A stretch of 64,000 nt of DNA from a virus (Duplodnaviria; Caudoviricetes): positions 32,001-96,000 of IMG/VR virus record IMGVR_UViG_3300036802_000003. One strand, given 5' to 3'. The position numbers were made by a program, and so were the translations under genes. Below are positions 2,867-57,666 of this stretch, one piece after another. Position 1 is the first letter of the stretch, and each line of letters begins with the position of its first letter. The notes under the pieces are model-generated. The model did no database searches and was not told the origin of the DNA. It worked only from the letters and a program-made list of their open reading frames with translations.

Positions 2867-3315
2867 TGAAAACTAGTACTGCACTAGATGTCATTGAACA
2901 GGGTAGAGCAGTTAGACGCAGGGGTTGGGTAAAAGGTGCTGTAGTATATAAGTCTGACAATGATATCATTGTGGACTATTCTAGAGTAGAGGAGTCTAAA
3001 CTGAGTGAAGCCTTCTCTACAGTGAGATGGATAGCCAAGCCTGAAGATTTGGTGGCTACTGACTGGGTAGACCTAGGGGTACTTACAGAAGGTAAGGAAC
3101 CTAACTGGGAAACTGGTTGGTCTAAGTATGATGAGCGCTTACAGGAGTTTGCAGTAAAGGCAGATGCAGTTAGGCTTGCGGTTAATGACCACATAGACCT
3201 AGCTAGCTATGCAAGAAACTCGTTCCGCATGCATATGGATACTACTATGTTGTGGGGCAAGCAAGCAATAGAAGATGCTATTGCACGTGAAGAGCTTATA
3301 AAGGAGGGCAAATAA
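2866..3315 (+). CDS. DUF2829/Tad2-like domain fused to an Acb2/Tad1-like helical hairpin
   Basis: N-half AL...G.AVRRRGW...W....EDLVATDW; C-half DTTMLWGKQAI aligns with the 3317 gene. Confidence 0.6.
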   Translation: MKTSTALDVIEQGRAVRRRGWVKGAVVYKSDNDIIVDYSRVEESKLSEAFSTVRWIAKPEDLVATDWVDLGVLTEGKEPNWETGWSKYDERLQEFAVKADAVRLAVNDHIDLASYARNSFRMHMDTTMLWGKQAIEDAIAREELIKEGK

Positions 3316-3876: not shown

Positions 3877-4269
3877 ATGGAGCTGAACAAGATGTCAGTA
3901 GTAAACAAAGGTAAAAATATCAAGCAGGTAGATGAGAAGAAGCAGAAACAACAGGAGATTAAGCGTAAGGAGAAAGAGGTACAACGTCAAAAGGCTTACT
4001 GGAATGCTATGATTACACGTGAAGAAGCACGTGATATGGTTATCAAGTCACAAGAGCCTTTAATGGAGCAAATGCGTACTATGTTTATTCAAGTGAAAAC
4101 ACTTACAGAATTTGTGTTACAGAATGGTATTGCTACAGAAGAACAGCTTAATGAGATTGGAGTGCCTATCTACAATGAAATGTACGGTATTCCAAGTAAG
4201 CAAGAAGTAGAGAATCCAGAGGAGGTGACTAAGGATGCCGATAAACCTGTCCAAGGGTCAAACAATTAA
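3877..4269 (+). CDS. hypothetical protein
   Basis: ORF in operon; charged and helical. Confidence 0.65.
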   Translation: MELNKMSVVNKGKNIKQVDEKKQKQQEIKRKEKEVQRQKAYWNAMITREEARDMVIKSQEPLMEQMRTMFIQVKTLTEFVLQNGIATEEQLNEIGVPIYNEMYGIPSKQEVENPEEVTKDADKPVQGSNN

Positions 4270-4903: not shown

Positions 4904-5656
4904 ATGGAAATCTTACAACATATACTTGATACCTACGCACAGTTCTTTGACTGGAGCATGTGGGGAGAAGTACTTACTAGTAAATCAGCTTGGGGCTTAA
5001 TCCTAAGTTTAGTAATCCTTGAGGGCTTGTTATCAGCAGATAACGCCCTCGTACTTGCCATCATGGTAAAACACTTACCAGAGGAACAACGTAAGAAAGC
5101 TTTATTCTATGGACTACTTGGTGCATACTTCTTCCGATTCCTATTCATTGGAGTAGGGACTCTACTAATCAAGCTGTGGTACGTTAAACTAATTGGTGCG
5201 GCATACCTACTGTGGATTGTAGTTGACCACTACCGTAAGAAGAATGTAGAGCAAGAAGAGGGTAAAGAGTTCAATACAGGTGGAGTACTTGTAAAATGGT
5301 TCGGTGTATTCTGGGCTACTGTTATCTCTGTTGAGATAATGGACATAGCGTTCTCTGTGGACAGTATCCTAGCAGCGCTTGGTGTATCAGAGCAAGTTTG
5401 GGTATTATTACTTGGTGGAATGTTAGGAATTCTAATGATGCGTGGAGTGGCTCAACTATTCCTATGGTTACTAGACAGAATTCCTGAACTAGAGAATACT
5501 GCATACTTCTTGATACTGGCGATTGCAGTTAAGATGGGTGGAAGCGTGTTTGGTCTAGAAATTAGCCATGAAGTGTTCGTTATCACTCTAGTGAGTGCAT
5601 TTGCCATCACATTTGCGTTGCATTATCTTAAAAAATACCTACCCCGTAAGGGTTAA
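4904..5656 (+). CDS. terC: TerC family membrane protein
   Basis: LEGLLSADNALVLA, DIAFSVDSILAA, multiple TM helices. Confidence 0.92.
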   Translation: MEILQHILDTYAQFFDWSMWGEVLTSKSAWGLILSLVILEGLLSADNALVLAIMVKHLPEEQRKKALFYGLLGAYFFRFLFIGVGTLLIKLWYVKLIGAAYLLWIVVDHYRKKNVEQEEGKEFNTGGVLVKWFGVFWATVISVEIMDIAFSVDSILAALGVSEQVWVLLLGGMLGILMMRGVAQLFLWLLDRIPELENTAYFLILAIAVKMGGSVFGLEISHEVFVITLVSAFAITFALHYLKKYLPRKG

Positions 5657-9711: not shown

Positions 9712-10519
9712 ATATTGAATTTATTATGCTTGTGAAGTCCTCATGTGTACCGCTCAAGAATCTAACCATCGAGCCATGTGTATAGTGCCTCATCTCATTT
9801 ACCCTTTTGGTAAATCCATTCTTAGTTAACAGTAGAACACGTGGAAACGTAGGATTCTTGAACACCCTTGCCCATTCCTTTTTAGCCCACTGTTTGGACA
9901 CATAGTAATCTTTGTAATTGTCAATCTTGTTCTTGATAACTGGTAACCTCTCCGTACCCATGTCGACCTCAATGCAGAATCCATATCCTTTACCCTTACA
10001 CTTAAATATGCAAACAATGTCGGGCTTAATGTAACTGTCATTAAAGTGGCACTTCTCTTCCGTCTCATAATATATCATCTCTCCCCCTAGTTCTCTAAGA
10101 ACTTCCTGTATCAAGCATTCACACTCATTAATGGCAACTCTGTGGTGAAACCCATCTACTAGTGTTCGCTGACCAGAAGAGTCATACTTGATTGGCTTGC
10201 TATATCGTTCTATATCCAGCAAGATTATTCCTGCCCTATCAATACATATGTGCTGTTGAGCACTTCCCTGCCCTAAAGGTACAGGAGGAACTATTCTATC
10301 TATCACATGCTTGTTGAACAGTATCTTCAACCTATTGTTAAGCCTTTCGGTGCTAGCAAATTCTGGGTAAAGGCGTTGTATCTGGTTTCTCTTTAGCACC
10401 CTCTTATCAGCCAGTAATCTTAACAACCCCATATCCCTCTCTGTAATGTTGTTGCAGTTATTGTAAACCCACTCTTTGGTAATCTGCTTTACCTCTGGAC
10501 GCTTATAAATACCTTTCAT
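9695..10519 (-). CDS. Replication-relaxation (Replic_Relax) family protein: wHTH plus restriction-endonuclease fold
   Basis: ITERD..LL..L, RL..L, HRVAINE, IKPD, IEVDMGTE, KIDNY, FPRVLLLT. Confidence 0.85.
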   Translation of the reverse strand: MKGIYKRPEVKQITKEWVYNNCNNITERDMGLLRLLADKRVLKRNQIQRLYPEFASTERLNNRLKILFNKHVIDRIVPPVPLGQGSAQQHICIDRAGIILLDIERYSKPIKYDSSGQRTLVDGFHHRVAINECECLIQEVLRELGGEMIYYETEEKCHFNDSYIKPDIVCIFKCKGKGYGFCIEVDMGTERLPVIKNKIDNYKDYYVSKQWAKKEWARVFKNPTFPRVLLLTKNGFTKRVNEMRHYTHGSMVRFLSGTHEDFTSIINSILKGSL

Positions 10520-10520
10520 A

Positions 10521-13256
10521 TCAGCCTTCCTCCAGTCCATCATCATTTAATACTTCCTCTAGTAATTCCATTATTTCCTCTGCACCTTCTTCATCACCAT
10601 CCTCTAGTAGCTTAGTTACTAGTGCACCAGCATCCTTTTCTAGTGTACGCAATTCCTCTTCATGTTGTTCTCTACGCTCATCTTCATCAATCTCAATAGG
10701 GGTGTTTTTTGGTGGGGTTTTGCCCTTCTTGATGTCTTCCTCTACTAACTCGACACTGAACTCCGCATTGTTCTTGTATCGGAACAACTCATTCAGCACT
10801 TCCTGTTTCGGTCTTCCCATAAGCTTTGCATTCTCATCGTATAAGTCATTATTGTTATACTTCTTGTATCTCTTTTCAGGCTCATTAATAGCCTTAACCA
10901 TAAATGGAGGAGTAGCTTCACCCTTCTTATTGTACATCTTTAGCTTGACGATTGCATGATGCTTAGGCATACCCTTTGCTATTTGGTCTGCACTAAACTC
11001 TGGTTGAATAACAGACTCCAGTTCTTTCAAGTTATCTCTATCTGTTTGGAATACTACATAGTGTGGACCAGCCTTACGTATCATCTTAGGCAAGGACTTA
11101 TCCATAGCCTTTAACTGCTCCCACCCATGGAACATAAATGTTAGACCACAACGGTACTTTCTATAACGAGTTAACATATTTCTCCAACGCTCACTACCTT
11201 TGATATAATGGTCTGGCTCATCTAGTATAATGAAGCATGGCTTACGGTCATCCTCTTCCTCGATATCCTCCCTGCTAATGATGGCAAGGTTGAATTTAGA
11301 TATTAAGAAGGATACCAATGCAGTCTGGTTCTCTTCTCCTAATGTCTCATTAGCCTTGACTAATACTAGGCAACCCTCATCCATCCACTTTCTGAAGTCT
11401 ACTATATATTCACCATTCTCATCCTTTTTAGGCTTCTGAAGTATGAAACTCTTTAGAGCCTTCTTACGCATTACAACCGCTAAACGTCTGAATGCTTGTT
11501 CATATATAGCTTTTCTGTCCTCTTTAGACATCTTCTCATGGAAGTACTCCCAATCACTACGCAACTCTGGGTCATCAATATGAGGAATAATGCTGGCACG
11601 GTACTCCGCATTACTCAGCATATTCTCTATATCCTGCAACGTTGCATCTGGAGTAGTGTATACTGCACGTACAGCATTCTCAACCCAGATTCTAGATGTC
11701 ATGCTTAACTCCGTACCTGCAACTAACTCAACGTATGACAGAATCTCTTCAGTAATTAAATCCTCAATAACATCAGCATTTCTACCTCTAAATATCTCAT
11801 TCCATCCTAACCCTACTGGGTTCTCTGAATTTAAGAAATCTATTATCTTTACCTTATGTCTCTTCTCTGGTGGAACTAGATTCAGTATCCTCTGTGCTAA
11901 CTTACCATCTGCCGCATCTACTACCATAGACCCATAACCTTTCTCCAGTGCATCTAGTGCAAAGCTAGCTGCAAAGGTAGACTTACCGCTACCTGGCTCT
12001 CCTATGACCACACGTGACATACACAGTAGGTTAGGGTTATCTCCTGCGAAGTATACTGTCTTAGTTTCACCATCTGTGTCCTCATATGTCGCAAACGGTA
12101 TACCCTTACCATCATCCTCAAATATTTCCTTAGGAATATCTGCTGAACTTCTATGCTGAACAGTATCTAGCTCATTTTGGTGCTCCATTTGTAGTACTTG
12201 GTCTGGTACCTGTATAATCTTAGCTAACTCTAGGGAGCATAGCTCATCTCCATTCATCTTAACAACCATCTTACGGTCTCTAATATTCTTGAGGGCTTTA
12301 ATTTTGTCTCTACCCTCTACTTCTTTCGCCACTAGTTTGTTATCCCCTTCTAAAGGGTGGAAACCTGCTGTAAGGCTTCTCGTGATAGCTCTACGTCTAT
12401 CTTCATCATCAGATATAGCTATTGCATTAAAGTTAATCTTGAACCCCTCACTATACTTCTTACGTAGTGAGGATTTAGAACGTCCCTCATGTGCCTTTCG
12501 CTTTAGCGACTCTCTAAATTCAGTATTCATCTCCCATCCAGGTATGAGGAAATCTCCTACTATGTTCATAAGTTCTTCAAGAACAAGACCCATGACGTTA
12601 GCCAAGCCCACCAAGACGTTTTTTGATGTAAACATCGTACCTTTTTTCTTAGGGATGACGTTCTTCTCCTTGATATTTTCACCAATCCCAACCATAGTCT
12701 CATTCCAAGACTCACCAAGCGGTCTCATCCCTAGTTGTAGTATCGCATAATCCTCATCCTTGAGATAGTTTGTAGTCGTCAGGATAGAGTCAAGTGGGGT
12801 ATACTTAGGGTTCTCCATGTCCAAGGCTAGTGCTGGGTGATTCTGCAAGGACATTTTGGTAACACTAGTATTGTCCATGTGAAGGTTAGGCAGAGGGTCT
12901 TTCACCTCCCTCACCGTAGAACGTTTCCAGCATCTTCTTATCTGCCTAGTAAGTGCATCCTTTAAATGGTCTTTATCAGGTATAACCAAATAGAACTTTA
13001 CCTGACCTTTGTGTATGACCACTTCCCACCATATATTCATCTCTGGAGTGTATATAAGTCTACCACCTCCAAAGTTTATACGCTTGTTTAGTGGAGTAAA
13101 CAATGTTGCAAACTCTGTTATAAGCCATCTAACCCCTGCATTGGACGTCATCTTACTAGGAATAACCTCCAGTGTCACATACTGTATTTCCTCTTTCTCT
13201 ACTAAACGTATCTTCTCCTTAGTAGTTGGATTAACAATATTAACCTCTGGTTGCAT
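10521..13256 (-). CDS. VirB4/VirD4 (TraG/TrwB-HerA-FtsK superfamily) ATPase, 911 aa
   Basis: Walker A GEPGSGKST, VVDAADG, Walker B IILDEP, RKYR arginine-finger region. Confidence 0.85.
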   Translation of the reverse strand: MQPEVNIVNPTTKEKIRLVEKEEIQYVTLEVIPSKMTSNAGVRWLITEFATLFTPLNKRINFGGGRLIYTPEMNIWWEVVIHKGQVKFYLVIPDKDHLKDALTRQIRRCWKRSTVREVKDPLPNLHMDNTSVTKMSLQNHPALALDMENPKYTPLDSILTTTNYLKDEDYAILQLGMRPLGESWNETMVGIGENIKEKNVIPKKKGTMFTSKNVLVGLANVMGLVLEELMNIVGDFLIPGWEMNTEFRESLKRKAHEGRSKSSLRKKYSEGFKINFNAIAISDDEDRRRAITRSLTAGFHPLEGDNKLVAKEVEGRDKIKALKNIRDRKMVVKMNGDELCSLELAKIIQVPDQVLQMEHQNELDTVQHRSSADIPKEIFEDDGKGIPFATYEDTDGETKTVYFAGDNPNLLCMSRVVIGEPGSGKSTFAASFALDALEKGYGSMVVDAADGKLAQRILNLVPPEKRHKVKIIDFLNSENPVGLGWNEIFRGRNADVIEDLITEEILSYVELVAGTELSMTSRIWVENAVRAVYTTPDATLQDIENMLSNAEYRASIIPHIDDPELRSDWEYFHEKMSKEDRKAIYEQAFRRLAVVMRKKALKSFILQKPKKDENGEYIVDFRKWMDEGCLVLVKANETLGEENQTALVSFLISKFNLAIISREDIEEEDDRKPCFIILDEPDHYIKGSERWRNMLTRYRKYRCGLTFMFHGWEQLKAMDKSLPKMIRKAGPHYVVFQTDRDNLKELESVIQPEFSADQIAKGMPKHHAIVKLKMYNKKGEATPPFMVKAINEPEKRYKKYNNNDLYDENAKLMGRPKQEVLNELFRYKNNAEFSVELVEEDIKKGKTPPKNTPIEIDEDERREQHEEELRTLEKDAGALVTKLLEDGDEEGAEEIMELLEEVLNDDGLEEG

Positions 13257-31954: not shown

Positions 31955-32182
31955 GTGAACATAAAGATTAACTACATCGCTGACCTTAGACTACGACAGG
32001 TAGAGGTCAGAACAGGAACTACAGTATTCCTAGTAGATGTAGAACACTTCCATAGAATAACAGAAGCAGATATAGAATCTATAGAAGGTCGTAGAGGGAC
32101 TTTGGTTCTAAGTAGTAACCTCTACATAAGCCTTAGGAAGGAGGCTACACATGTCGGCAGACTTAGAGGAACTGAAGCGTAA
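31955..32182 (+). CDS. hypothetical protein
   Basis: ORF with GGAGG RBS. Confidence 0.6.
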   Translation: MNIKINYIADLRLRQVEVRTGTTVFLVDVEHFHRITEADIESIEGRRGTLVLSSNLYISLRKEATHVGRLRGTEA

Positions 32183-48346: not shown

Positions 48347-48520
48347 GGTTTCTATGAGGGTTAGGTAGAAAATCGTTTCCAATTAACAAAAAAGACTAGG
48401 GAAGAGATAGCGAAACCGCATCTCTTCCTTTTTTATTTTTTCTTTGCGTCCTATGTAGGTTACATCAGTAGCACATCAAAACCGTATAGGGTCAGCCAGT
48501 AGAGTAGGCTAGAGTAACAA

Positions 48521-48556
48521 AACGTCCTTGACTTCCTCACCTCACCATGACATAAT
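48521..48556 (+). promoter_or_regulatory. early sigma-A promoter
   Basis: AACGTCC-TTGACT-N17(TG)-CATAAT. Confidence 0.8.
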
Positions 48557-48632
48557 TGCTTCAAGCGAGAGGGGCACACCACACAAGGGAATCCCACTCA
48601 ACAAATATTCGAGAATAAAGGAGACGATAATT

Positions 48633-49451
48633 ATGGCATATCTAGTAAACGGTGAGGAAACAGTAGTAACAGTTAAAGAGGTAGGAGCTATCCTTGGTAT
48701 GAAGGTAACTAAGAAGGGTATCCTAGCAGGCGAGTATCCAGAGGTAGAGGTTGTAGAAGTAGAAGATACTAAGGAGGATGTTAATATGGAAGAGAATACT
48801 TTAGTAGAAGCAGCGGTAGAAGAAGGTAAGCTAGAAATCGTTATGGTAGGCGATGCACCTGCTACAGGTGAGCTAGAAGTAGTAGAGGAAGAGCAGGAGG
48901 AACTAGCTCTAGAAGAGGAGCCTATTGAGGAAGAGGTACATACTGAAGAGGAAGTACCTGCTCCTACTGAAGAAGAGCCTGTAGTAGAAGAGTCTAAAGA
49001 AGAGGTAGCAGACTGGAGAGCTATGGCTAAGAAACTTAAACAGCCAGAAGCTAAGGCTAAAGCTCCTAAGGTTAAGGAAGACCTAGCAGGTCAGGAAGTA
49101 GAGTACCCTGAAGTAGGACACTTTGACTCTATCGACGATATCAAGAAGTTCTACAAGCGCCTATCTATGGAGCAGGTTATGGAGTGGGCTGATATTGAGG
49201 GCTTAGAGTGGAAGGCTAACGATAACCCTGGTATCAATCGTATGAGAGTGTGCATGGCTATCAGTAACCACCACTTCCCTAAGAAGACTAGTGGTAAGAA
49301 GAAAGCTAAGTATGGTCACCTATCTACAGAGGATTTACTAGCAATGGCTATTGAGAACGATGTAGAGGTAAGAGAGCCTAAGGGCGATAACGAAAATATC
49401 CTACGCATGTACACTATCATGGCTTTACGTGAAGCAGGACTATTAGCATAG
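48633..49451 (+). CDS. paralog family member 2 (acidic linker plus tandem helical repeat)
   Basis: YPEVGHF...INRMRVCMAI...KKKAKYG...RMYTIMALREAG. Confidence 0.8.
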   Translation: MAYLVNGEETVVTVKEVGAILGMKVTKKGILAGEYPEVEVVEVEDTKEDVNMEENTLVEAAVEEGKLEIVMVGDAPATGELEVVEEEQEELALEEEPIEEEVHTEEEVPAPTEEEPVVEESKEEVADWRAMAKKLKQPEAKAKAPKVKEDLAGQEVEYPEVGHFDSIDDIKKFYKRLSMEQVMEWADIEGLEWKANDNPGINRMRVCMAISNHHFPKKTSGKKKAKYGHLSTEDLLAMAIENDVEVREPKGDNENILRMYTIMALREAGLLA

Positions 49452-49527
49452 GTGTTGCTAGCATAGCCCCTACGGGGGCTGTAGCACTGGAACATTATAT
49501 GTTACCTAGATAAAAGGAGTGGTATAT

Positions 49528-49839
49528 ATGAATATCCCTACAGAGGTAAAGGCTGGACAGTATTTCGTTACATTCAACTTTGGAGCGTCTTGTATAGTAG
49601 ATGGAGCTACAGGTGAGGTACTTTTCCTACACGATGAGGATGGGCTAGAAGATGGGGAAGGCTTTGTAATAGAGGAAGTATGTAATGAGGCTACTGGTGA
49701 GGAGCAACCGTGGTGCTTCCTAGTAAACAATAAGTTCTTCGTAGATAAGATGGTAGCAGAGGGTACATGGTACTGTGTAGTAAGCGGTAACGGTACTGAT
49801 GGCAACATTACAGGTATCTACAAAGGAGGTATGATTTAA
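49528..49839 (+). CDS. early hypothetical protein
   Basis: RBS within motif A. Confidence 0.7.
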   Translation: MNIPTEVKAGQYFVTFNFGASCIVDGATGEVLFLHDEDGLEDGEGFVIEEVCNEATGEEQPWCFLVNNKFFVDKMVAEGTWYCVVSGNGTDGNITGIYKGGMI

Positions 49840-50159
49840 TGACTAGTGTACTAGTAAATAACAAATTGTTACCTGCTGAAGTAATGGAGGAGATAGCCTT
49901 AAAGTTAACTATGCAGTGTGTAGAGTGGGAGAACATAGAAGGGGATATGTACCTAGTGCCTCCTAATATGCACGAGAATAATATGATGACTGTATGGGCA
50001 CATGCTGATCATATGAACGAGATACCTGCACTAGATGACCTACCACTCACTCATACGGAGGATATAAGTACTCATGGGGTTACAGTATCAGTGTATGAGG
50101 AATTCTACATTGACGTTACCTTCCTACACGTACTGGTGGTGAATACAGATGCCTCTTAA
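49839..50159 (+). CDS. early hypothetical protein
   Basis: AGGAGGT RBS. Confidence 0.7.
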   Translation: MTSVLVNNKLLPAEVMEEIALKLTMQCVEWENIEGDMYLVPPNMHENNMMTVWAHADHMNEIPALDDLPLTHTEDISTHGVTVSVYEEFYIDVTFLHVLVVNTDAS

Positions 50160-50379
50160 TATAGAGTACTCACAAGATGGGATAAGGGGTAGTAAGACAT
50201 ATGAGTCAATGAGTGCTATGCGTAGGTTTATAAAGACTAATGCACTCACTGATTACGCATTAGCTAGGTATATAGGGGATAACCCCTATGATAAGAGTAC
50301 CTACGCGATTATACAGCGTGGTAATGGCTATAAGCATAGTAGTGAGTATGACTATAAAAGGAGTGGATTGTATGAGTAA
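50149..50379 (+). CDS. early hypothetical protein
   Basis: ORF overlapping neighbours. Confidence 0.6.
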   Translation: MPLNIEYSQDGIRGSKTYESMSAMRRFIKTNALTDYALARYIGDNPYDKSTYAIIQRGNGYKHSSEYDYKRSGLYE

Positions 50380-50716
50380 GAAGGAAATGTATACCAGAGA
50401 AGAAGTAGAGCAGTGGGTAATAAACTTTGTACAGGAGCGTATAGCTGCTATTAAGCATAATGATAGTAACTATGAGGTAGAGGTAGATGACCTAGGAGAC
50501 ATCCTAGTACAGTTTAGAGTAGATGATATGTTAACTAAGTATAGTGCTACCGTCCTACAAGGACTACTAGAGCACTACCACGAGCAGTGGCTATCGTTCT
50601 ACCAAGAGCACTATAGTGGGCTAGCCCTAATGAATCGTACCCATGATAGCCTAGCCTATTACTATGAAGCATGGTACTACTTCTGTAGACCTGGTACCTA
50701 TAAGCTAGACCTATAA
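50372..50716 (+). CDS. early hypothetical protein
   Basis: AAAGGAGTGG RBS; terminator after. Confidence 0.7.
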   Translation: MSKKEMYTREEVEQWVINFVQERIAAIKHNDSNYEVEVDDLGDILVQFRVDDMLTKYSATVLQGLLEHYHEQWLSFYQEHYSGLALMNRTHDSLAYYYEAWYYFCRPGTYKLDL

Positions 50717-50834
50717 GCCCCTACATGGGGCTATTTTTATGCCTAGACGTCTCTATGGAGGGTAGGTAGAAAATCGCTTCAAATAAAACACTCCCACACT
50801 ATAGGGTCAGCCCGTAACTAGGATACCAGTAGGC

Positions 50835-50870
50835 AACGTCCTTGAGATTTTCTCCCCTCCGTGCGATAAT
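50835..50870 (+). promoter_or_regulatory. early sigma-A promoter
   Basis: AACGTCC-TTGAGA-N17(TG)-GATAAT. Confidence 0.8.
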
Positions 50871-50930
50871 TTTGTTACGGGGGACGGGAACAACGTCAAC
50901 CAGACTACAACACACTAGGAGGAAGATAAT

Positions 50931-51242
50931 ATGACAGTATCTAGAGAGGCAGTACAGGAAGCTTACCCTGTAGAGGTAGGAGTAGCAAACGTTCTTATAC
51001 TAGGGGAGGCTACCGAAACGTTTGGTGGTACCCTACAACAGGTTATACCGTATATCCAGGCTGGCTACAGCCACGTAGTAAGAGATAACTACCTAGACAC
51101 GTGGGTAGCCACAGAACCTTTACAGTTTACTGCTAGGGATATAGCAGATATTAAGAGAGCTGTATCTCCAGGTACATATGTTACCCTAGAGAACGACACT
51201 AAGGTAGCAGTATATACAGTGTGTCTAGAAGAAGATATGTAG
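50931..51242 (+). CDS. early hypothetical protein
   Basis: AGGAGG RBS. Confidence 0.7.
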   Translation: MTVSREAVQEAYPVEVGVANVLILGEATETFGGTLQQVIPYIQAGYSHVVRDNYLDTWVATEPLQFTARDIADIKRAVSPGTYVTLENDTKVAVYTVCLEEDM

Positions 51243-51319
51243 TCTGCTAGTACTTACCCTCAGGGGTAGGTATCCTGGAGCTTACATAAGAGCTACCTAG
51301 ATAAAAGGAGTGGTATATA

Positions 51320-51640
51320 ATGAGTACAGCTAAATTAACTTCAGTAACGGTGTGTGTAGAAAGAACTATTAAGGTAGGTACAATATGTCGTGTCAATACC
51401 AGCTATGGATACCTAGGACTGGATAGTGGTGAGGTAGAGGTTAAGAAGATTGTACCTACATCTGAGCTACCTAAGTATATCGACCTGTATGCATGGGAGC
51501 AGTTCCAAGACGACCCTAGCGATGTACAGAACTGGCAGTGGGTAGGGTTCCAGTATACAGACCCTAAGCAACGTGAGGACGATGACCACTACGAGTACTT
51601 CCCTGTAGAGGAGTTTGCAGACCATATGAGTCAGCTATAG
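51320..51640 (+). CDS. early hypothetical protein (paralog of 52743)
   Basis: L..G.V.V, WV...Y.D, Y.P...F shared. Confidence 0.7.
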   Translation: MSTAKLTSVTVCVERTIKVGTICRVNTSYGYLGLDSGEVEVKKIVPTSELPKYIDLYAWEQFQDDPSDVQNWQWVGFQYTDPKQREDDDHYEYFPVEEFADHMSQL

Positions 51641-51712
51641 GTTGCTAGGGCAGGCGATACTATCGCCTTCCTTATGGAGCTAATAGCTACCTAGATAAAA
51701 GGAGTGGTATAT

Positions 51713-52111
51713 ATGTTGAGTAAGAAGATGACACCGGTAGCGTACCTATATAGTGAGCGTGCTACAGCTACAGAGGTAGCAGAGTTTGTAAAGCGTGCTA
51801 TGGGTATAGGGCTAACTAAGTTTGTAGAGGATGGGGAGCAGTTTAACCTATTAGCGCTACCTGAGGAGTACCCAGATGACTGGGTAGAAGACCTTATAAA
51901 TGTAGTAATACCTACAGGAGCTATGCTACAAGAAGCAGTATGGCAGGGTAAGGATATCCCTGGTAAGACTCTATATGAGCACTATAGTGTGTGGGAAGTT
52001 AATAAGGTAGAGCGTAAGGGCGATGATAATAGAGCTATTATACGTAAGCAGAACGATAAGGATATCTACCTATTGTTCATAGACAACCCTTATGTGAGAA
52101 ACCCTAGATAG
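51713..52111 (+). CDS. early hypothetical protein
   Basis: RBS within motif A. Confidence 0.7.
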   Translation: MLSKKMTPVAYLYSERATATEVAEFVKRAMGIGLTKFVEDGEQFNLLALPEEYPDDWVEDLINVVIPTGAMLQEAVWQGKDIPGKTLYEHYSVWEVNKVERKGDDNRAIIRKQNDKDIYLLFIDNPYVRNPR

Positions 52112-52124
52112 TCTAGGGTAGGGG

Positions 52125-52160
52125 AACGTCCTTGATGTTTCCCCTGCTCCATGGTATAAT
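52125..52160 (+). promoter_or_regulatory. early sigma-A promoter
   Basis: AACGTCC-TTGATG-N17(TG)-TATAAT. Confidence 0.8.
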
Positions 52161-52211
52161 TTTTTCAAGAGGAGCAGGGGTGCTCCTACTAGAGGCTAGG
52201 AGGAGATAGTA

Positions 52212-52517
52212 ATGATAAAGGTAACATATAAATCGAATGTAGACTGTAATACTAAGGTGGCTATCATAGATGTAGATAAGGAGCAGGTAGTAAAGGATAC
52301 CTCTAACGACGGTACTAAGCTAGTAGATGTATCGGAAGATATGATCTGTACATTCGGTGTTATAGCCGATGGTAGGGACTATACTAGTTGGGGTACTGTG
52401 TACCACCTACTTATGAATAGCCTAGACGTTCCATATAAGGAGACACTAGGGCTAAACATAGAGGGTATCGAAGGCGTACCTATCCTAAAGCTAGAGCTAG
52501 CAGAGGAGGCAGAGTAG
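52212..52517 (+). CDS. early hypothetical protein
   Basis: AGGAGG RBS. Confidence 0.7.
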   Translation: MIKVTYKSNVDCNTKVAIIDVDKEQVVKDTSNDGTKLVDVSEDMICTFGVIADGRDYTSWGTVYHLLMNSLDVPYKETLGLNIEGIEGVPILKLELAEEAE

Positions 52518-52518
52518 T

Positions 52519-52695
52519 ATGCACGAGTGTACCTACTGTGGGGTGTCTAGCCCCTCCCTATCATGGGATAGAGCTACTGCGGATGAGTTCCTAGGTGAGG
52601 GATACAGCATGGATATGATAGGTAGCATCAGTAAGCAGGAGGTAGATACTATCCACATATGTCCAAGTTGTAAAGCAGATACTATTATTAAATAG
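52519..52695 (+). CDS. 58-aa zinc-ribbon protein
   Basis: AGGAGG RBS; CTYC...CPSC. Confidence 0.6.
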   Translation: MHECTYCGVSSPSLSWDRATADEFLGEGYSMDMIGSISKQEVDTIHICPSCKADTIIK

Positions 52696-52742
52696 AGCTA
52701 GGGGCATAGCCCCTAGTACTTACATATAAGGGAGAGGTTAAT

Positions 52743-53039
52743 ATGAACGAACTAGGTAACGCAGAGGCACACATCACTATAGAGGTAAAGCCAGGTAGCG
52801 AGTGGGATATACACCCTACATTTACAAATGGTCTACAAGACCTAGAGCCAGGTGGGGTAGTAGTAGACCATATGGCTAGATATAGAGAGGTACCAGAGGA
52901 CTATCAAGCTCTATTTACTGAGCAGGCATATACTCATCCTAAGGACAGTGTATGGGTGGCATATAAGTACTGGGATGATAACTCTACACTATACTACCTG
53001 CCTACTAAAGTTTTCTTAGGAGCAGTAACTCACAAATAG
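52743..53039 (+). CDS. early hypothetical protein (paralog of 51320)
   Basis: RBS; shared motifs. Confidence 0.7.
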   Translation: MNELGNAEAHITIEVKPGSEWDIHPTFTNGLQDLEPGGVVVDHMARYREVPEDYQALFTEQAYTHPKDSVWVAYKYWDDNSTLYYLPTKVFLGAVTHK

Positions 53040-53114
53040 ATATTGCTAGGTAGCCTTGTACGCAGGGCTACTCCTGGAATACCTATACTCACAGATAAAA
53101 GGAGAGAGTTGACT

Positions 53115-53345
53115 ATGATAAACCTATATGGAACAGTAACACCAGAGGTAAAGGAATGGATAGCAAAGGAGATACGTGGTAATATAGAGGGTACTAGTGC
53201 ATGGCTAGTAGGTAAGGGTAAAGACCCTATCAAGTATACGGAAGAGGATATTGAATGCCTAGTAATAGACTTCCTAAATGGGGTACATGAACAGGTTACT
53301 ATTGATATGGCTAGTAGATTCGAGATAGAGGGGGACTTACTATAA
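53115..53345 (+). CDS. early hypothetical protein
   Basis: RBS within degenerate motif A; weakly similar to next gene. Confidence 0.65.
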   Translation: MINLYGTVTPEVKEWIAKEIRGNIEGTSAWLVGKGKDPIKYTEEDIECLVIDFLNGVHEQVTIDMASRFEIEGDLL

Positions 53346-53563
53346 TGGGTACTATTACAGATGAGCAGGTATTAGAATGGCTAAAGGAAAAGGTAGTAGC
53401 AGAGGCTAAGAACTGTAGGGAGCAGGGCTTCCATGTACCTAGTATGACACAGTATGATGTGGATAGGGCTGCTAGTAACTTATTAGAGGATATAGACCAA
53501 CACTTGGTAGCTAAGGCTATAGAGGACGCACTAGGTATAGACATGAATAACCCAGACTACTAG
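53345..53563 (+). CDS. early hypothetical protein
   Basis: coupled start; terminator at 53572-53606. Confidence 0.65.
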   Translation: MGTITDEQVLEWLKEKVVAEAKNCREQGFHVPSMTQYDVDRAASNLLEDIDQHLVAKAIEDALGIDMNNPDY

Positions 53564-53842
53564 ATAATATACACCCTATATACACAAACGTATATAGGGT
53601 TTTCTTATGCTCGTTTCTATGAGAGGTACCTACAAATGCACTTCCTATTAAAGCAACTCGGTTCGCTCATCAGAATCTCCTCCCACCATTCAATCCCCTC
53701 CACCAACCTTTCGCTCTACAAAAAGTTCTAACACTCACCTACTCGAATTTCTCCTGCTTCAATCTTCTGACCCTTTCTCCTTTCTGGTGGATCCACTTAC
53801 AGAGTTGATATAGCACTCACATAGGAGCAGAGGAGGGCATAG

Positions 53843-53871
53843 AAAAAGGGAGTACCAATTGGTACTCCCTT
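53843..53871 (-). terminator. intrinsic terminator of the leftward early arm
   Basis: AAAAAGGGAGTACC-AATT-GGTACTCCCT. Confidence 0.8.
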
Positions 53872-53879
53872 ACACTCAC

Positions 53880-54185
53880 TTACATAGGGGACACTATAGC
53901 TATAGGAGGCAGTGTCTCTACTTCAAATCCACGCTCCGTATACCACTCAGTAGTGGCACTTATCCACTCACTCATACTTGTCTCTACGTCATCTATCTCT
54001 TCATCTAGAGGGTCTAACCCACGCACTCGATACATGATAGCCTTAACATCTGGGTAGTCAACCTCAGGTATCTCACCCTCACCACTCACTAGCAGTAAAG
54101 ATACATACTCACTCTCACGTATGAAGTCACCTGCATCTAAATCATAATATCCAAATGGCTCAACTGCTACTACTAACTTACTCAT
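53880..54185 (-). CDS. early acidic hypothetical protein
   Basis: RBS within motif A. Confidence 0.7.
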   Translation of the reverse strand: MSKLVVAVEPFGYYDLDAGDFIRESEYVSLLLVSGEGEIPEVDYPDVKAIMYRVRGLDPLDEEIDDVETSMSEWISATTEWYTERGFEVETLPPIAIVSPM

Positions 54186-54257
54186 ACTTACCACTCCTCT
54201 TATCTAGGTAACCAATAGGTTCCATGATACCCCCTCCGTAGAGGGAGTACTAGCAAC

Positions 54258-54668
54258 TTACTGAATCTTACCAGCCGCACGTAGTGCCATAATAGTACGC
54301 ATTCTCATAATCTGCTCGCTATCAGTAAACTCTACTGCTATATCGTTATCTAAGCAGAGTGTCATAAGAGCCTCCATAGTATAGTCTGCATATTTAGCTT
54401 TCTTCTTAGTAGATGGCTCCTTAGGATAGTGGAAGTATAGGATAGCCATACATACTCTCATTCTATGAATTTGTTCGTTATCATTAGGTGTGAATACTAA
54501 TCCTTCTACTTGACACCAATCCTCTAGGATAGACACATCCAGTTGCTTATAGAATTTTTGTAGCCATTTCTTATCCTCGAAGATACCTACCTCAGGATAT
54601 CCATTATTACTAGTAATCCATTCCATAGCGTCTACCTTACCGTTGATGATATTCTCTTTTTTACTCAT
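54258..54668 (-). CDS. paralog family member 3
   Basis: YPEVG.F..KK.LQKFYKQL...RMRVCMAILY...KKKAKYADYTME...RMRTIMALRAAG. Confidence 0.8.
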   Translation of the reverse strand: MSKKENIINGKVDAMEWITSNNGYPEVGIFEDKKWLQKFYKQLDVSILEDWCQVEGLVFTPNDNEQIHRMRVCMAILYFHYPKEPSTKKKAKYADYTMEALMTLCLDNDIAVEFTDSEQIMRMRTIMALRAAGKIQ

Positions 54669-54737
54669 ATCATATTCCTCCTATGCCTCTGTGGGCTGGT
54701 CTTGTAGGAGTCGGTGTGACCCGCTCCCCTTGAATAA

Positions 54738-54773
54738 ATTATATCACGGGTGTGCCGATAACTCAAGGACGTT
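54738..54773 (-). promoter_or_regulatory. early sigma-A promoter
   Basis: AACGTCC-TTGAGT-N17(TG)-TATAAT on minus strand. Confidence 0.8.
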
Positions 54774-55153
54774 TACTCGTATAGGATGGGGCATACACCT
54801 AGCCCTGTTGGGCTTTCTATGGGGGTTACCTACAAACTCCTTTCAAATAAAGCAATCGGAGTTCGCTTATCAATTACTTTCTCCCCACCAATATACCCAA
54901 CAACAACCCTTCGCTCATATATCTTTTGTATGTGAATTTCTCTCTTCTCTCTCTTTCATATACAAATGGTTCTGACTGATTTTGAAGCAGAAAACTGACA
55001 CAGAACAACACACCAAACACAATTTTTGAGCTACAACTTTTGTACCCAAATTTCTTGTTGAAACCGTTTTGAACCCTTTTGCCCTTCCACTCACAAAGAT
55101 GCGAAAACGGGCTAAAAGATGCCCTACACCCACAAACGCACAAAAATAGACAC

Positions 55154-55309
55154 CTACTTACTGTAGGTGTCTTGATACGCTTCTAACTGCTTCTCTACTC
55201 CAGGGTGTGTCCACGTCACTGCTGTATACACAAGGTTACAAGCTAGGTAAAGGAGCGTACACGCTCCTGTTACCACTAGCACTCGCTTAATCGTTCTAAC
55301 AGTCTTCAC
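55154..55309 (-). CDS. 51-aa single-TM protein
   Basis: GGAGGTG RBS, GTG start; basic N-terminus plus hydrophobic helix. Confidence 0.55.
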   Translation of the reverse strand: MKTVRTIKRVLVVTGACTLLYLACNLVYTAVTWTHPGVEKQLEAYQDTYSK

Positions 55310-55445
55310 TAGGCTCACCTCCGTTACAGTCGTCACAGATGTCCATAGGGTCATCATACGCTGGGTCATTAGGGCACTGCTTCTGGAACATCTTACCACA
55401 CAGGTCACACGTTACACTCTCTAGATAGTACTTTACGTTACTCAC
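55296..55445 (-). CDS. 49-aa zinc-ribbon protein
   Basis: GGAGGTG RBS; CDLC...CDDC. Confidence 0.55.
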   Translation of the reverse strand: MSNVKYYLESVTCDLCGKMFQKQCPNDPAYDDPMDICDDCNGGEPSEDC

Positions 55446-55762
55446 AGGATTCCACCTCCGATACTCACGATACCCTTACGAGCGTACCTCATCAGGTACT
55501 CTAGGTTGTTCCTAGCACTCTGCTCACTCACTACTCCAGTACTCATCAACGGTACTACACTGCCCACTAACGAGTCGTTCACTGCTACGATAGAGGCACA
55601 GAACTCATCCTCCTGCACTTGGTCTAGGATAACCACCCAGATAGACTCAGTACCTTCATACTCACGAGCATCACTGCCCACCATACGGAAGTAGTGCATC
55701 TCACTAGGTGAATTCTCCTCCAGAATAACCCACTCAGGGACGTACGTTTTAGTTTTACCCAT
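55442..55762 (-). CDS. early hypothetical protein
   Basis: RBS within motif A. Confidence 0.7.
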   Translation of the reverse strand: MGKTKTYVPEWVILEENSPSEMHYFRMVGSDAREYEGTESIWVVILDQVQEDEFCASIVAVNDSLVGSVVPLMSTGVVSEQSARNNLEYLMRYARKGIVSIGGGIL

Positions 55763-55839
55763 ACTAACCACTCCTTTTCACTAGGTAGCTAAGTAGCTCC
55801 AGGGCACCCACCCCCGTAGGGGTGAGCACTAGCAGATAC

Positions 55840-56019
55840 TTACCCCACTAGGGACGCTACTAACTCAACGTCCTCGTAGTCCACTGACAGGGCAATCTTA
55901 GACCCATCAGTACACTCAATGATGATACCGTTCCACTCACCTTCACCGTCCCAGTTCTCACTCACGGTACTCACAGTCTTACCCTCTAAGGACTTCACAA
56001 GACTCCAAAACTTACTCAC
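55840..56019 (-). CDS. early hypothetical protein
   Basis: RBS within motif A, GTG start. Confidence 0.65.
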   Translation of the reverse strand: MSKFWSLVKSLEGKTVSTVSENWDGEGEWNGIIIECTDGSKIALSVDYEDVELVASLVG

Positions 56020-56094
56020 ACTAACCACTCCTTTTGTCTAGGTAGCTTACACAAGCTCCATGGGATACCCCCCGTAGGGGGTAGCCTAGCAACC

Positions 56095-56496
56095 CTAAGC
56101 TTTCTCGATGTGACCTGCTGCACGTAGCGCCATGATAGTTCGCATACGCATAATCTGTTCAGACTCTGTGTACTCCACCGCCACGTCGTTGTCTAGGCAC
56201 ATCTGCATAAGCTGTTCCATAGTGTAGTCTGCGTACTTAGCTTTTTTCTTAGCGGAAGGCTCCTTAGGGAAGTGTAGGTACAGGATAGCCATACACATCC
56301 GCATACGGTTGATAGCCTCAGAATCCTCACAAGGTTTGAACTCTAGTCCTTCGATACCAATCCAGTCACCTAGAGTTACATCATCAAGTTGTTTGTAGAA
56401 CTTCTGTAGGTCTTTTTTCTCTGTGAAGTGCCCTACCTCTGGAAAACCGTTTTCCTCTACGTGCTTCACTGCGTCTACCTTTTTCGCTTTAGCCAT
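56095..56496 (-). CDS. paralog family member 4
   Basis: close paralog of 54258..54668. Confidence 0.8.
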   Translation of the reverse strand: MAKAKKVDAVKHVEENGFPEVGHFTEKKDLQKFYKQLDDVTLGDWIGIEGLEFKPCEDSEAINRMRMCMAILYLHFPKEPSAKKKAKYADYTMEQLMQMCLDNDVAVEYTESEQIMRMRTIMALRAAGHIEKA

Positions 56497-56593
56497 AATC
56501 AATCAATCTCCTTTTCGCTCTTGAGTTTTTTGTGTAGGTCGTGGGTACCGTCCGTGTGTTGCTCTGGTGTGGTGCCCTCTTCCTCTTGAACTA

Positions 56594-56629
56594 AGTTTAC
56601 CACGAAACGGAGGTAAAGTCAAGGACGTT
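56594..56629 (-). promoter_or_regulatory. early sigma-A promoter
   Basis: AACGTCC-TTGACT-N17(TG)-TAAACT on minus strand. Confidence 0.8.
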
Positions 56630-56823
56630 TCCCTACTTAGAGTGGGGGTATATCCCTAGCCCTAGGCGTTTCTATGGGGTCTAGGTAGAAACTTGCTTCA
56701 TATAAAGAAGAGCGAGGTATCGCTTCACCACCAGTTCCCCCACCACAACCCTTATCTTTAATATAAATATAATATAATGTTCTAATATCCTCTTTCTTCT
56801 ATATAATTTCCTTTTAGTATACT

Positions 56824-56997
56824 AATAATACGATATATGCATATTACACACTTAATATATACACAAAACACAATATACTAAAACACATACTCTTAATAAG
56901 CGAATAATACGATATATACGGGCTATAACACTAAATCACAATAACACGATATCCTTGGGGCAGGACATTACTTGCAATATACGAATAATACGATATA
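56824..56997 (+). repeat. iteron-like direct repeats in an AT-rich non-coding region
   Basis: AATAATACGATATA at 56824, 56903, 56984; variant AATAACACGATATC at 56940. Confidence 0.75.
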
Positions 56998-57666
56998 CAC
57001 GGACTGTAGACATCGAGCATTTGCGTGGCGCAGGACAGGGCTTAGGGCGTACCTGATACAGCAGAGGCAGCGCTATAGTGCCTAAGCGTTCCAGCAGTCC
57101 GTGGGGCAGCACTAAGACGCTAGGCGTCCCCAGAATCCTTGGGGCAGTCTTAGATAGTAATCGACGTTCGTTATCACTTACTCTCTTCACCACCAATTAC
57201 CCCACCACCAACCTTTCGTACTAAATAGATATTATAAACTCTACTCTCTTATAACTTTCATCTGCTAACTATGTTCATCTTCCTTCCTCTTTTTCTTTTT
57301 GTGCCTTCAACTCCTACAACTATCAACTGTACACATTTTGTTACTGTATGTTTTCTCTCTTCTTCGTCTATGGTCTCGTTTTGACTGTACGTGGTATATG
57401 CCTCCGCATTTAAATTTTTTATTAAAGCTTAAAGATATAAATACTTAAAAGAGTCTTTTAATATACTCTTTTTTAAATTAAAAAATAAATACTTAAAAGC
57501 TTTAAATTACGTACGAAGTACGTAACTAAAAAGCGATAGCGACCATAGGAACGTCCCACCTGCAAGGAGTAGATTATAGGATGGTGGGTCATCCTCTACC
57601 AGTTTCGTAGGAAGGAGAAGATTTGGGACTTGTTCCCTTCTTTTAGTGCAAAGGGAGGTTGTGAGC

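Follow-up and report, generated by a model that had tools for sequence, protein, structure and literature searches.

Early RNAs of the Bacillus phage SP82 are cut by the RNase III of Bacillus subtilis (Bs-RNase III); cleavage has been mapped in SP82, and the RNase III targets of this phage contain internal loops. The RNase III sites of SP82 and SPO1 are said to have been studied by Panganiban and Whiteley in 1983, by Mitra and Bechhofer in 1994 and by Stewart et al. in 1998. Here we compare these sites with seven copies of an intercistronic RNA element in a 64,000-nucleotide stretch of phage DNA (the window; positions 32,001 to 96,000 of IMG/VR record IMGVR_UViG_3300036802_000003, assigned to Caudoviricetes). 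Coordinates are those of the window unless another sequence is named. An earlier note on this DNA had described the copies as an undescribed cis RNA motif. Sequence comparison indicates that they belong, as members from the CP-51 group of phages, to a family already known, the SP82/SPO1-type RNase III processing sites, and are not a new RNA class. They are homologous to sites RS-A to RS-D annotated in SPO1 (accession AF031901), and the family is present in SP82G. What the comparison points to is the very case that the earlier note had named as contrary to its proposal, namely a plain RNase III site.

Bs-RNase III is an enzyme of narrow specificity (PMC4838370). Near a processed 5′ end, a polypurine tract resembling a Shine-Dalgarno (SD) sequence stabilises the RNA downstream; mutations in the ribosome-binding site (RBS) cut the half-life of SP82 mRNA, and LacZ output rose 7-fold with the stabilising element of SP82 (PMC7509114, PMC11805744). 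The strong SD-like polypurine tract AAAAGGAG that follows each of the present elements resembles both the SP82 5′ stabiliser and the STAB-SD of Bacillus mRNAs. It differs from them in being the true RBS of the next gene, and stabilisation here is predicted. The SP82 stabiliser is reportedly a polypurine tract near the cut, as found by Hue et al. in 1995, and work on stabilisers of this kind is also said to have come from Agaisse and Lereclus in 1996.

Repeated hairpins with an internal loop also lie between the early cistrons of phage T7 (signals R0.3, R0.5, R1, R1.1 and R1.3), where RNase III makes one cut, in the 3′ strand, and the upstream mRNA keeps a hairpin at its 3′ end (PMC1935012). 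The T7 signals differ from the present elements in that their sequence is unrelated and the enzyme is that of E. coli. To our knowledge, they have no conserved alternative hairpin and no fixed RBS block.

Homology to the SPO1 and SP82 sites

The 8 kb around the elements are 84-86% identical to the Bacillus phages Shanette, JL and CP-51, which points to a CP-51-like source phage (Herelleviridae, Spounavirinae, Siminovitchvirus) with a genome of 139,244 bp. In Shanette and JL, the homologous stretch sits within the 16-kb terminal repeat (16.5 kb in Shanette) and adjoins a gene annotated "transcriptional regulator," which PHROG profiles group with the SPO1 gp44-type regulators. The element-bearing region is therefore the counterpart of the SPO1 host-takeover module.

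We searched these genomes with R1, a covariance model whose 19 distinct source copies all come from the CP-51 group, with no SPO1 sequence among them. On the source genome it scores six full copies at 55.7-73.5 bits and a shorter one at 24.5 bits, the next best hit reaching 12.7 bits, and in each relative it recovers 4-6 copies. On the SPO1 terminal repeat it gives six intergenic hits (E 6e-14 to 1.5e-7). A BLAST search with one of these hits led to AF031901.1, where the feature "RNAse III site RS-D" lay beneath the match. This record annotates sites RS-A to RS-F, and four of the model's six hits on it overlap RS-A to RS-D: 11033-11087 on the minus strand (RS-A, 11043-11095), 10738-10793 on the minus strand (RS-B, 10750-10799), 10112-10165 on the minus strand (RS-C, 10123-10170) and 5425-5478 on the plus strand (RS-D, 5415-5473). 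The other two are also full copies, one at 4116-4169 on the plus strand in the gene 44 leader and one at 10534-10586 on the minus strand between genes 58 and 57. At places homologous to those in SPO1, SP82G has six hits and CampHawk six per terminal repeat. The RefSeq and GenBank whole-genome records of SPO1 and the CampHawk record leave these sites unannotated; only AF031901 annotates them. Besides promoters, RBS blocks and terminators, we found no other repeated structured intergenic family in the SPO1 terminal repeat.

Sites of both groups are detected by one covariance model. In both, the sites are intercistronic in early host-takeover operons, carry the bases U-GCUAG ... AUGGAGC ... GCUAC in a stem/internal loop/stem of ~20 bp, and have a strong polypurine SD downstream. 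In every phage, every hit lies in the terminal-repeat host-takeover module. The groups differ at the 3′ end. CP-51-group copies read ACCUAG there and the SD comes within 3-6 nt; in SPO1 copies the end is GCUAC-UAA and the SD is 15-45 nt away, in some cases with a third hairpin in between. They also differ in that the present phage is of the CP-51 group, which has a B. cereus host, and that cleavage here is predicted.

A covariance model termed R2 gave zero candidates in Bastille, W.Ph., Listeria phage A511 and Staphylococcus phage K, and the family looks confined to the Spounavirinae, with one genome tried per other group. In IMG/VR, a pattern scan with a loose form of the motif was unspecific, with single chance matches among the matches listed, and of the patterns used only one that included the RBS recovered true relatives. 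One extra contig came from a tighter SPO1-like pattern and was rejected by the model. A protein-based search for the locus returned only close CP-51-like contigs. The Rfam search that the earlier note had advised brought up no matching family: with gathering thresholds, neither the window nor eight related loci gave a hit, and at E up to 5 there was none at the elements.

The seven copies

We name the copies E1 to E7 in order along the window. A full element consists of the 5′ strand of a lower stem, a GCUA internal-loop segment, an upper stem (P1), the bases UGGA, a segment X and the 3′ strand ACCUAG of a second hairpin (P2). On the plus strand, E1 (49447-49510, 55.7 bits) has the stop codon TAG (49449-49451) of a gp44-like regulator gene in its lower stem and a UACG loop on P1; its RBS is at 49512-49523 and the next ATG at 49528. 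The same architecture is found in E2 (51236-51301, 66.5 bits; RBS 51303-51314, ATG 51320) and in E3 (51634-51695, 62.2 bits; RBS 51697-51708, ATG 51713). On the minus strand, the full elements are E5 (54203-54264, 71.9 bits; RBS 54201-54190, ATG 54185-54183), E6 (55780-55843, 56.5 bits; RBS 55778-55767, ATG 55762-55760) and E7 (56037-56100, 73.5 bits; RBS 56035-56024), the last followed by a GTG start codon at 56019-56017. A 7-8-nt SD, AAAAGGAG, is placed 3-6 nt past each element.

E4 (53035-53087, plus strand) has the lower stem, internal loop and P1, and is without the P2 3′ strand; the model hit covers 53043-53087 (24.5 bits, E 3e-6), with the RBS AAAAGGAG at 53097-53104 and ATG at 53115. 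The earlier note had listed a copy at 53044-53114 and called it degenerate. The copy is real, but its long hairpin is complete, with 8 of 9 lower-stem pairs formed, and it is only the P2 3′ strand that is missing. E4 is nearly identical in Shanette, JL and CP-51, which means that the form without the P2 3′ strand is kept in four phages.

All seven copies are present where the earlier note had placed them, and far above chance. The 19-mer CCTAGATAAAAGGAGTGGT, which covers the 3′ junction and RBS, occurs six times with at most 3 mismatches (0.02 expected), and the composite pattern TGCTAG-N-TGGA-N-CCTAG also occurs six times (0.24 expected), with no copies beyond these six in the full 139,244-bp genome. 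Every copy is transcription-sense and begins 2-5 nt past a stop codon, just as had been noted.

A hairpin at 52697-52720, GCUAG-GGGC-AUA-GCCC-CUAG, lies between the genes at 52519-52695 and 52743-53039. It shares the GCUAG start and a GC hairpin with the elements, has neither UGGA nor a P2 part, and gives no model hit. It could be what is left of an element, or a signal of another kind.

A long hairpin that covaries

The best-supported fold is a long hairpin of the SP82 type, in which the lower stem, a conserved internal loop and P1 together make ~20 bp, or roughly two helical turns. It was suggested by the RS spans of AF031901, which start 8-10 nt upstream of UGCUAG, end ~10 nt past UGGA and, folded alone, form one long hairpin; it was then tested on the CP-51 group. 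The lower stem (~9-10 bp with one mismatch) pairs the 10 nt before GCUAG with the 10 nt that start at the A of UGGA, the base preceding GCUAG pairing with that A and the rest following outward. In all copies, the upstream stop codon lies inside its 5′ strand. The internal loop has the invariant bases GCUA on the 5′ side and AUGG on the 3′ side (N-N-A-U-G-G), and P1 is a GC-rich stem of 10-12 bp, frequently with a UACG loop.

Both stems covary. In P1, 8 of 10 pairs vary on both sides in the CP-51 group, with the same result on the 29 distinct copies aligned to the model, and no shuffle out of 500 reached the covariation score of P1 and the second hairpin. Among 37 distinct copies from both genera, two-sided changes are seen in 8 of 10 pairs of P1 (96.5% paired) and likewise in 8 of 10 pairs of the lower stem, where 77.6% of cells are paired as against 39-50% with the partner slid. 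Within the CP-51 group, a flank forms on average 7.3 of 9 pairs with its own partner, 5.4 with the partners of other copies and ~3-4 in a shifted register. Folding with the flank makes the long hairpin the minimum free energy (MFE) fold in six of the seven window copies, 1-7 kcal/mol better than a fold into two hairpins; in E2, for example, it is the MFE fold and 8 of 9 lower-stem pairs form. The sense strand outfolds the antisense strand in 24 of 29 distinct copies (mean −22.7 versus −18.5 kcal/mol), and therefore it is in the RNA that the fold is selected. The earlier note was right that the stems differ and keep pairing, and right in placing a cis structured RNA with genuine covariation between the stop codon and the next RBS; the fold it drew overlooked the covarying lower stem.

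The bases GCUA and AUGG are invariant across two genera, which is more than a pure duplex signal would need, and three elements come after gp44-like genes. One could take these facts as signs of another nuclease or of an RNA-binding protein: RNase Y might cut a single-stranded UUGCUAG before the hairpin, or an early regulator of the gp44/50/51 type might bind the loop bases to shut off early mRNAs. We regard this as quite improbable. A conserved internal loop in a ~20-bp duplex is a trait of narrow-specificity RNase III substrates, and in the supported fold UUGCUAG is partly within the helix and the internal loop and is not free. The invariant loop agrees with the narrow specificity of the B. 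subtilis enzyme (PMC4838370).

The second hairpin and the three-way junction

P2 pairs GGA-NNN with NNN-U-A-CC, leaving a bulged A, and 3 of its 6 pairs change on both sides. In the CP-51 group, the variants AGCU, AACAU, AACC, AGUC and AGCC each occur with their own complement, and in the SPO1 group GGAGCC/GGCUAC alternates with GGAGCG/CGCUAC. The second hairpin of the earlier note does covary, as this shows, but it overlaps the lower stem by four bases (AGCU), and the two are therefore alternative pairings. P2 is accessory to the core signal, because the E4 form, a long hairpin with no P2 3′ strand, is kept in four phages.

The earlier note had further proposed that CUAG/CUAG closes a three-way junction. 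This helix is constant throughout the CP-51 group and is uninformative there; five of six SPO1 copies and the CP-51 copy L124:7435-7494 have lost it with no compensating change, and it forms in just one of 29 single-sequence MFE folds. We reject the junction. A new self-cleaving ribozyme built on it, which the earlier note had entertained in view of fixed junction bases next to variable stems, appears to us extremely improbable. No Rfam ribozyme model matches even at E up to 5, the closing helix is not conserved, and the fold that covaries is a plain stem/internal loop/stem, whose conserved bases occupy the internal loop of a duplex two turns long, a placement also seen in RNase III substrates.

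P2 also bears on the reach of the SD. In CP-51-group copies, the P2 3′ strand and GGAGUGGU can pair in a 7-bp helix whose stability is close to that of P2, and the mean predicted accessibility of the SD is 0.56. Together with a stop codon within the lower-stem 5′ strand of all copies and two covarying helices that share AGCU, this would suit a switch actuated by the ribosome for translational coupling. A terminating ribosome would melt the lower stem, GGAGCU (a pseudo-SD) would pair with AGCU-A-CC as P2, and the true SD would be freed, with cleavage secondary or absent. Several observations make such a switch unlikely. The SD is invariant, leaving no covariation to read in the masking helix; in SPO1-group copies this helix is not formed and the SD is 15-45 nt further off; E4 is conserved without the P2 3′ strand; and the homologous sites are annotated as RNase III sites. 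Such a switch could, moreover, accompany cleavage instead of replacing it.

Predicted function and significance

Reasoning from the SP82 and SPO1 sites, we consider it very likely that each element is a processing signal of their type, at which the host's double-strand-specific RNase III would cut inside a polycistronic early transcript. A processing or stabilising site was among the options of the earlier note and is the best reading. Before the cut, the upstream gene would pair, through its last codons, its stop codon and 2-5 nt, with the segment that starts at the A of UGGA, and the lower stem, internal loop and P1 would make a duplex of ~20 bp, the size of an RNase III substrate. The enzyme would cut once, within the 3′ strand and close to the internal loop, in line with what is reported for SP82. 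This would leave the upstream mRNA ending in the P1 hairpin, which is expected to block 3′ exonucleases. The 3′ strand of the lower stem, now free and part of the downstream mRNA, would refold with the conserved AGCU-A-CC into P2, at or near the new 5′ end and immediately before the SD AAAAGGAG. A bound ribosome and this 5′ hairpin would guard against RNase J1 and keep translation high.

Several points weigh against this assignment. The enzyme and the cut position in the CP-51 group would be carried over from SP82, and the SP82 cut position is itself taken second-hand and from the AF031901 spans. The refolding into P2 after the cut and a protective role for P2 are presumed, and a ribosome-driven switch could use P2 instead. 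Two of the model's hits in SPO1 (4116-4169 and 10534-10586) carry no RNase III annotation in AF031901, and the model does not hit RS-E (4019-4062) or RS-F (3254-3311) of that record, which are different-looking and fold weakly.

It is tempting to speculate that processing, stabilisation and translational activation are coupled. Both alternative helices, the lower stem and P2, covary in two phage genera, and the element might be a two-state device, with two possible partners for the segment after UGGA: the end of the upstream gene, giving the long hairpin cut by RNase III, or AGCU-A-CC, giving P2. Either the cut or a terminating ribosome would flip it to P2, capping the 5′ end and, in the CP-51 group, freeing the SD. 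We offer this coupling tentatively, as a possible and rather doubtful extension.

The value of these findings is modest but concrete, and no new RNA class is revealed. The only family of Bacillus RNase III phage substrates that has been mapped by experiment is extended to a second genus. The comparison supplies 37 distinct natural variants of this family, which Rfam and current genome annotations lack, together with a working covariance model, and adds two unannotated copies in SPO1 itself. The invariant bases (loop 5′ GCUA and 3′ AUGG; the GGAGC/GCUAC pairs) are candidates for the features on which the narrow specificity of Bacillus RNase III depends. With a predicted cut site, a 3′ cap hairpin, a 5′ hairpin and a strong RBS, the elements may serve as natural operon-insulating parts for Bacillus, and they mark units of host-takeover gene exchange. 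What may be new is the covariation of both alternative helices, along with the pair of unannotated SPO1 copies and a model that can be used for this family.

Cassette borders and gp44 paralogs

We compared the gene content of the region by local BLAST with Shanette, JL, CP-51 and a 139-kb IMG/VR relative. Shanette and JL have another gene in place of the one behind E1, and CP-51 lacks it; the left breakpoint, at 49532, is just past the start codon (49528-49530). The gene at 50931-51242 is absent, together with E2, in JL and CP-51; here the right breakpoint, 51300, is the last base of ACCUAG. The gene behind E5 is different in every relative (breakpoint 54177). At the far end, the gene at 55840-56019 and one element (E6) are extra in the window, and where the window has E7, this gene and E6, Shanette and JL have a single element. 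The hairpin and P2 thus move with the upstream gene, and exchange occurs in or just past the common RBS block. This block is identical at every copy and therefore also marks the points of cassette exchange between related phages.

The earlier note had proposed a cassette recombination point, and gene-content boundaries do coincide with the copies. The counts demonstrate no excess over other junctions and no specific recombination hot spot: 4 of 10 breakpoints lie at elements and about 7 of 25 gene junctions have an element. The stronger form of this idea, a DNA-level linker for cassette shuffling whose RNA fold is incidental, draws on the four cassette differences from Shanette, JL and CP-51 that end at element/RBS borders (49532, 51300, 54177 and 55834/56016). 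It is very improbable in our view, since compensatory changes, G-U pairs on the sense strand only and an orientation that follows transcription show selection on RNA, and since breakpoints generally fall at gene boundaries, with no excess demonstrated at elements over any intergenic junction.

Arbiol et al. reportedly described, in 2010, the promoter-early stem-loop (PeSL) cassettes of T4-type phages. The present elements resemble them as repeated regulatory blocks that lie next to small early genes, at the borders of swapped cassettes, and differ in having no promoter, in lying inside operons and in being selected as RNA folds, with no recombination excess shown. We rejected a mobile cassette of the PeSL type: no promoter-like site is found within the elements, and the one common trait is the coincidence with cassette borders.

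The gp44-like regulator gene (phrog_12391) at 48570-49451 on the plus strand precedes E1. Two paralogs of its C-terminal domain (phrog_9647), about half its length, lie on the minus strand at 54258-54668, before E5, and at 56095-56502, before E7. Two of these gp44-like genes are 75% identical in DNA across 205 nt. Because E1, E5 and E7 each follow a gene with the gp44 C-terminal domain, part of the element family has spread by duplication of gene plus hairpin. In Pfam, the genes flanking the elements have no match.

Early operons and other features of the region

From consensus scans and a map of open reading frames, the early operons that carry the elements extend over 48528-56622 on both strands. 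Promoters and terminators are predictions from the scans. The sigma-A-type promoters, each with a TG-extended −10, are at 48528-48556, 50842-50870 and 52132-52160 on the plus strand and at 54766-54738 and 56622-56594 on the minus strand; terminator-like hairpins are at 50716-50732 and 53573-53600 on the plus strand and at 53871-53846 and 55172-55148 on the minus strand. These five promoters and four clear terminator hairpins partition the region into short operons, and all seven elements are intra-operon, sense-oriented and behind the first or second cistron. As intrinsic terminators the elements themselves were rejected: P1 is followed by N-N-A-U-G-G-A and no U tract, and they are not among the terminator-like sites.

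Upstream of the TG-extended −10, the early promoters have a common conserved block, AACGTCCTTGA, which overlaps the −35 hexamer. The blocks are at 48518-48568, 50832-50882 and 52122-52172 on the plus strand and at 54760-54791 and 56616-56647 for the minus-strand promoters. A 42-nt motif (GTTTCTATGRGGG-TAGGTAGAAA...TTC-AATAAA) occurs five times, at 48348-48389, 50749-50790, 53613-53654, 54813-54854 and 56668-56709. All five copies are on the plus strand regardless of the direction of the adjacent operon, and each is near an early promoter or terminator.

Across the genome, GATC is nearly missing (46 observed versus 494 expected, ratio 0.09) and TCGA is depleted (ratio 0.31), a pattern that looks like restriction-site avoidance. 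CTAG is enriched 1.65-fold, which fits the frequent CUAG in elements and leaders. Past the last early operon, non-coding DNA at 56809-57008 holds three copies, spaced 79-81 nt, of a 40-nt AT-rich repeat with AATAATACGATATA.

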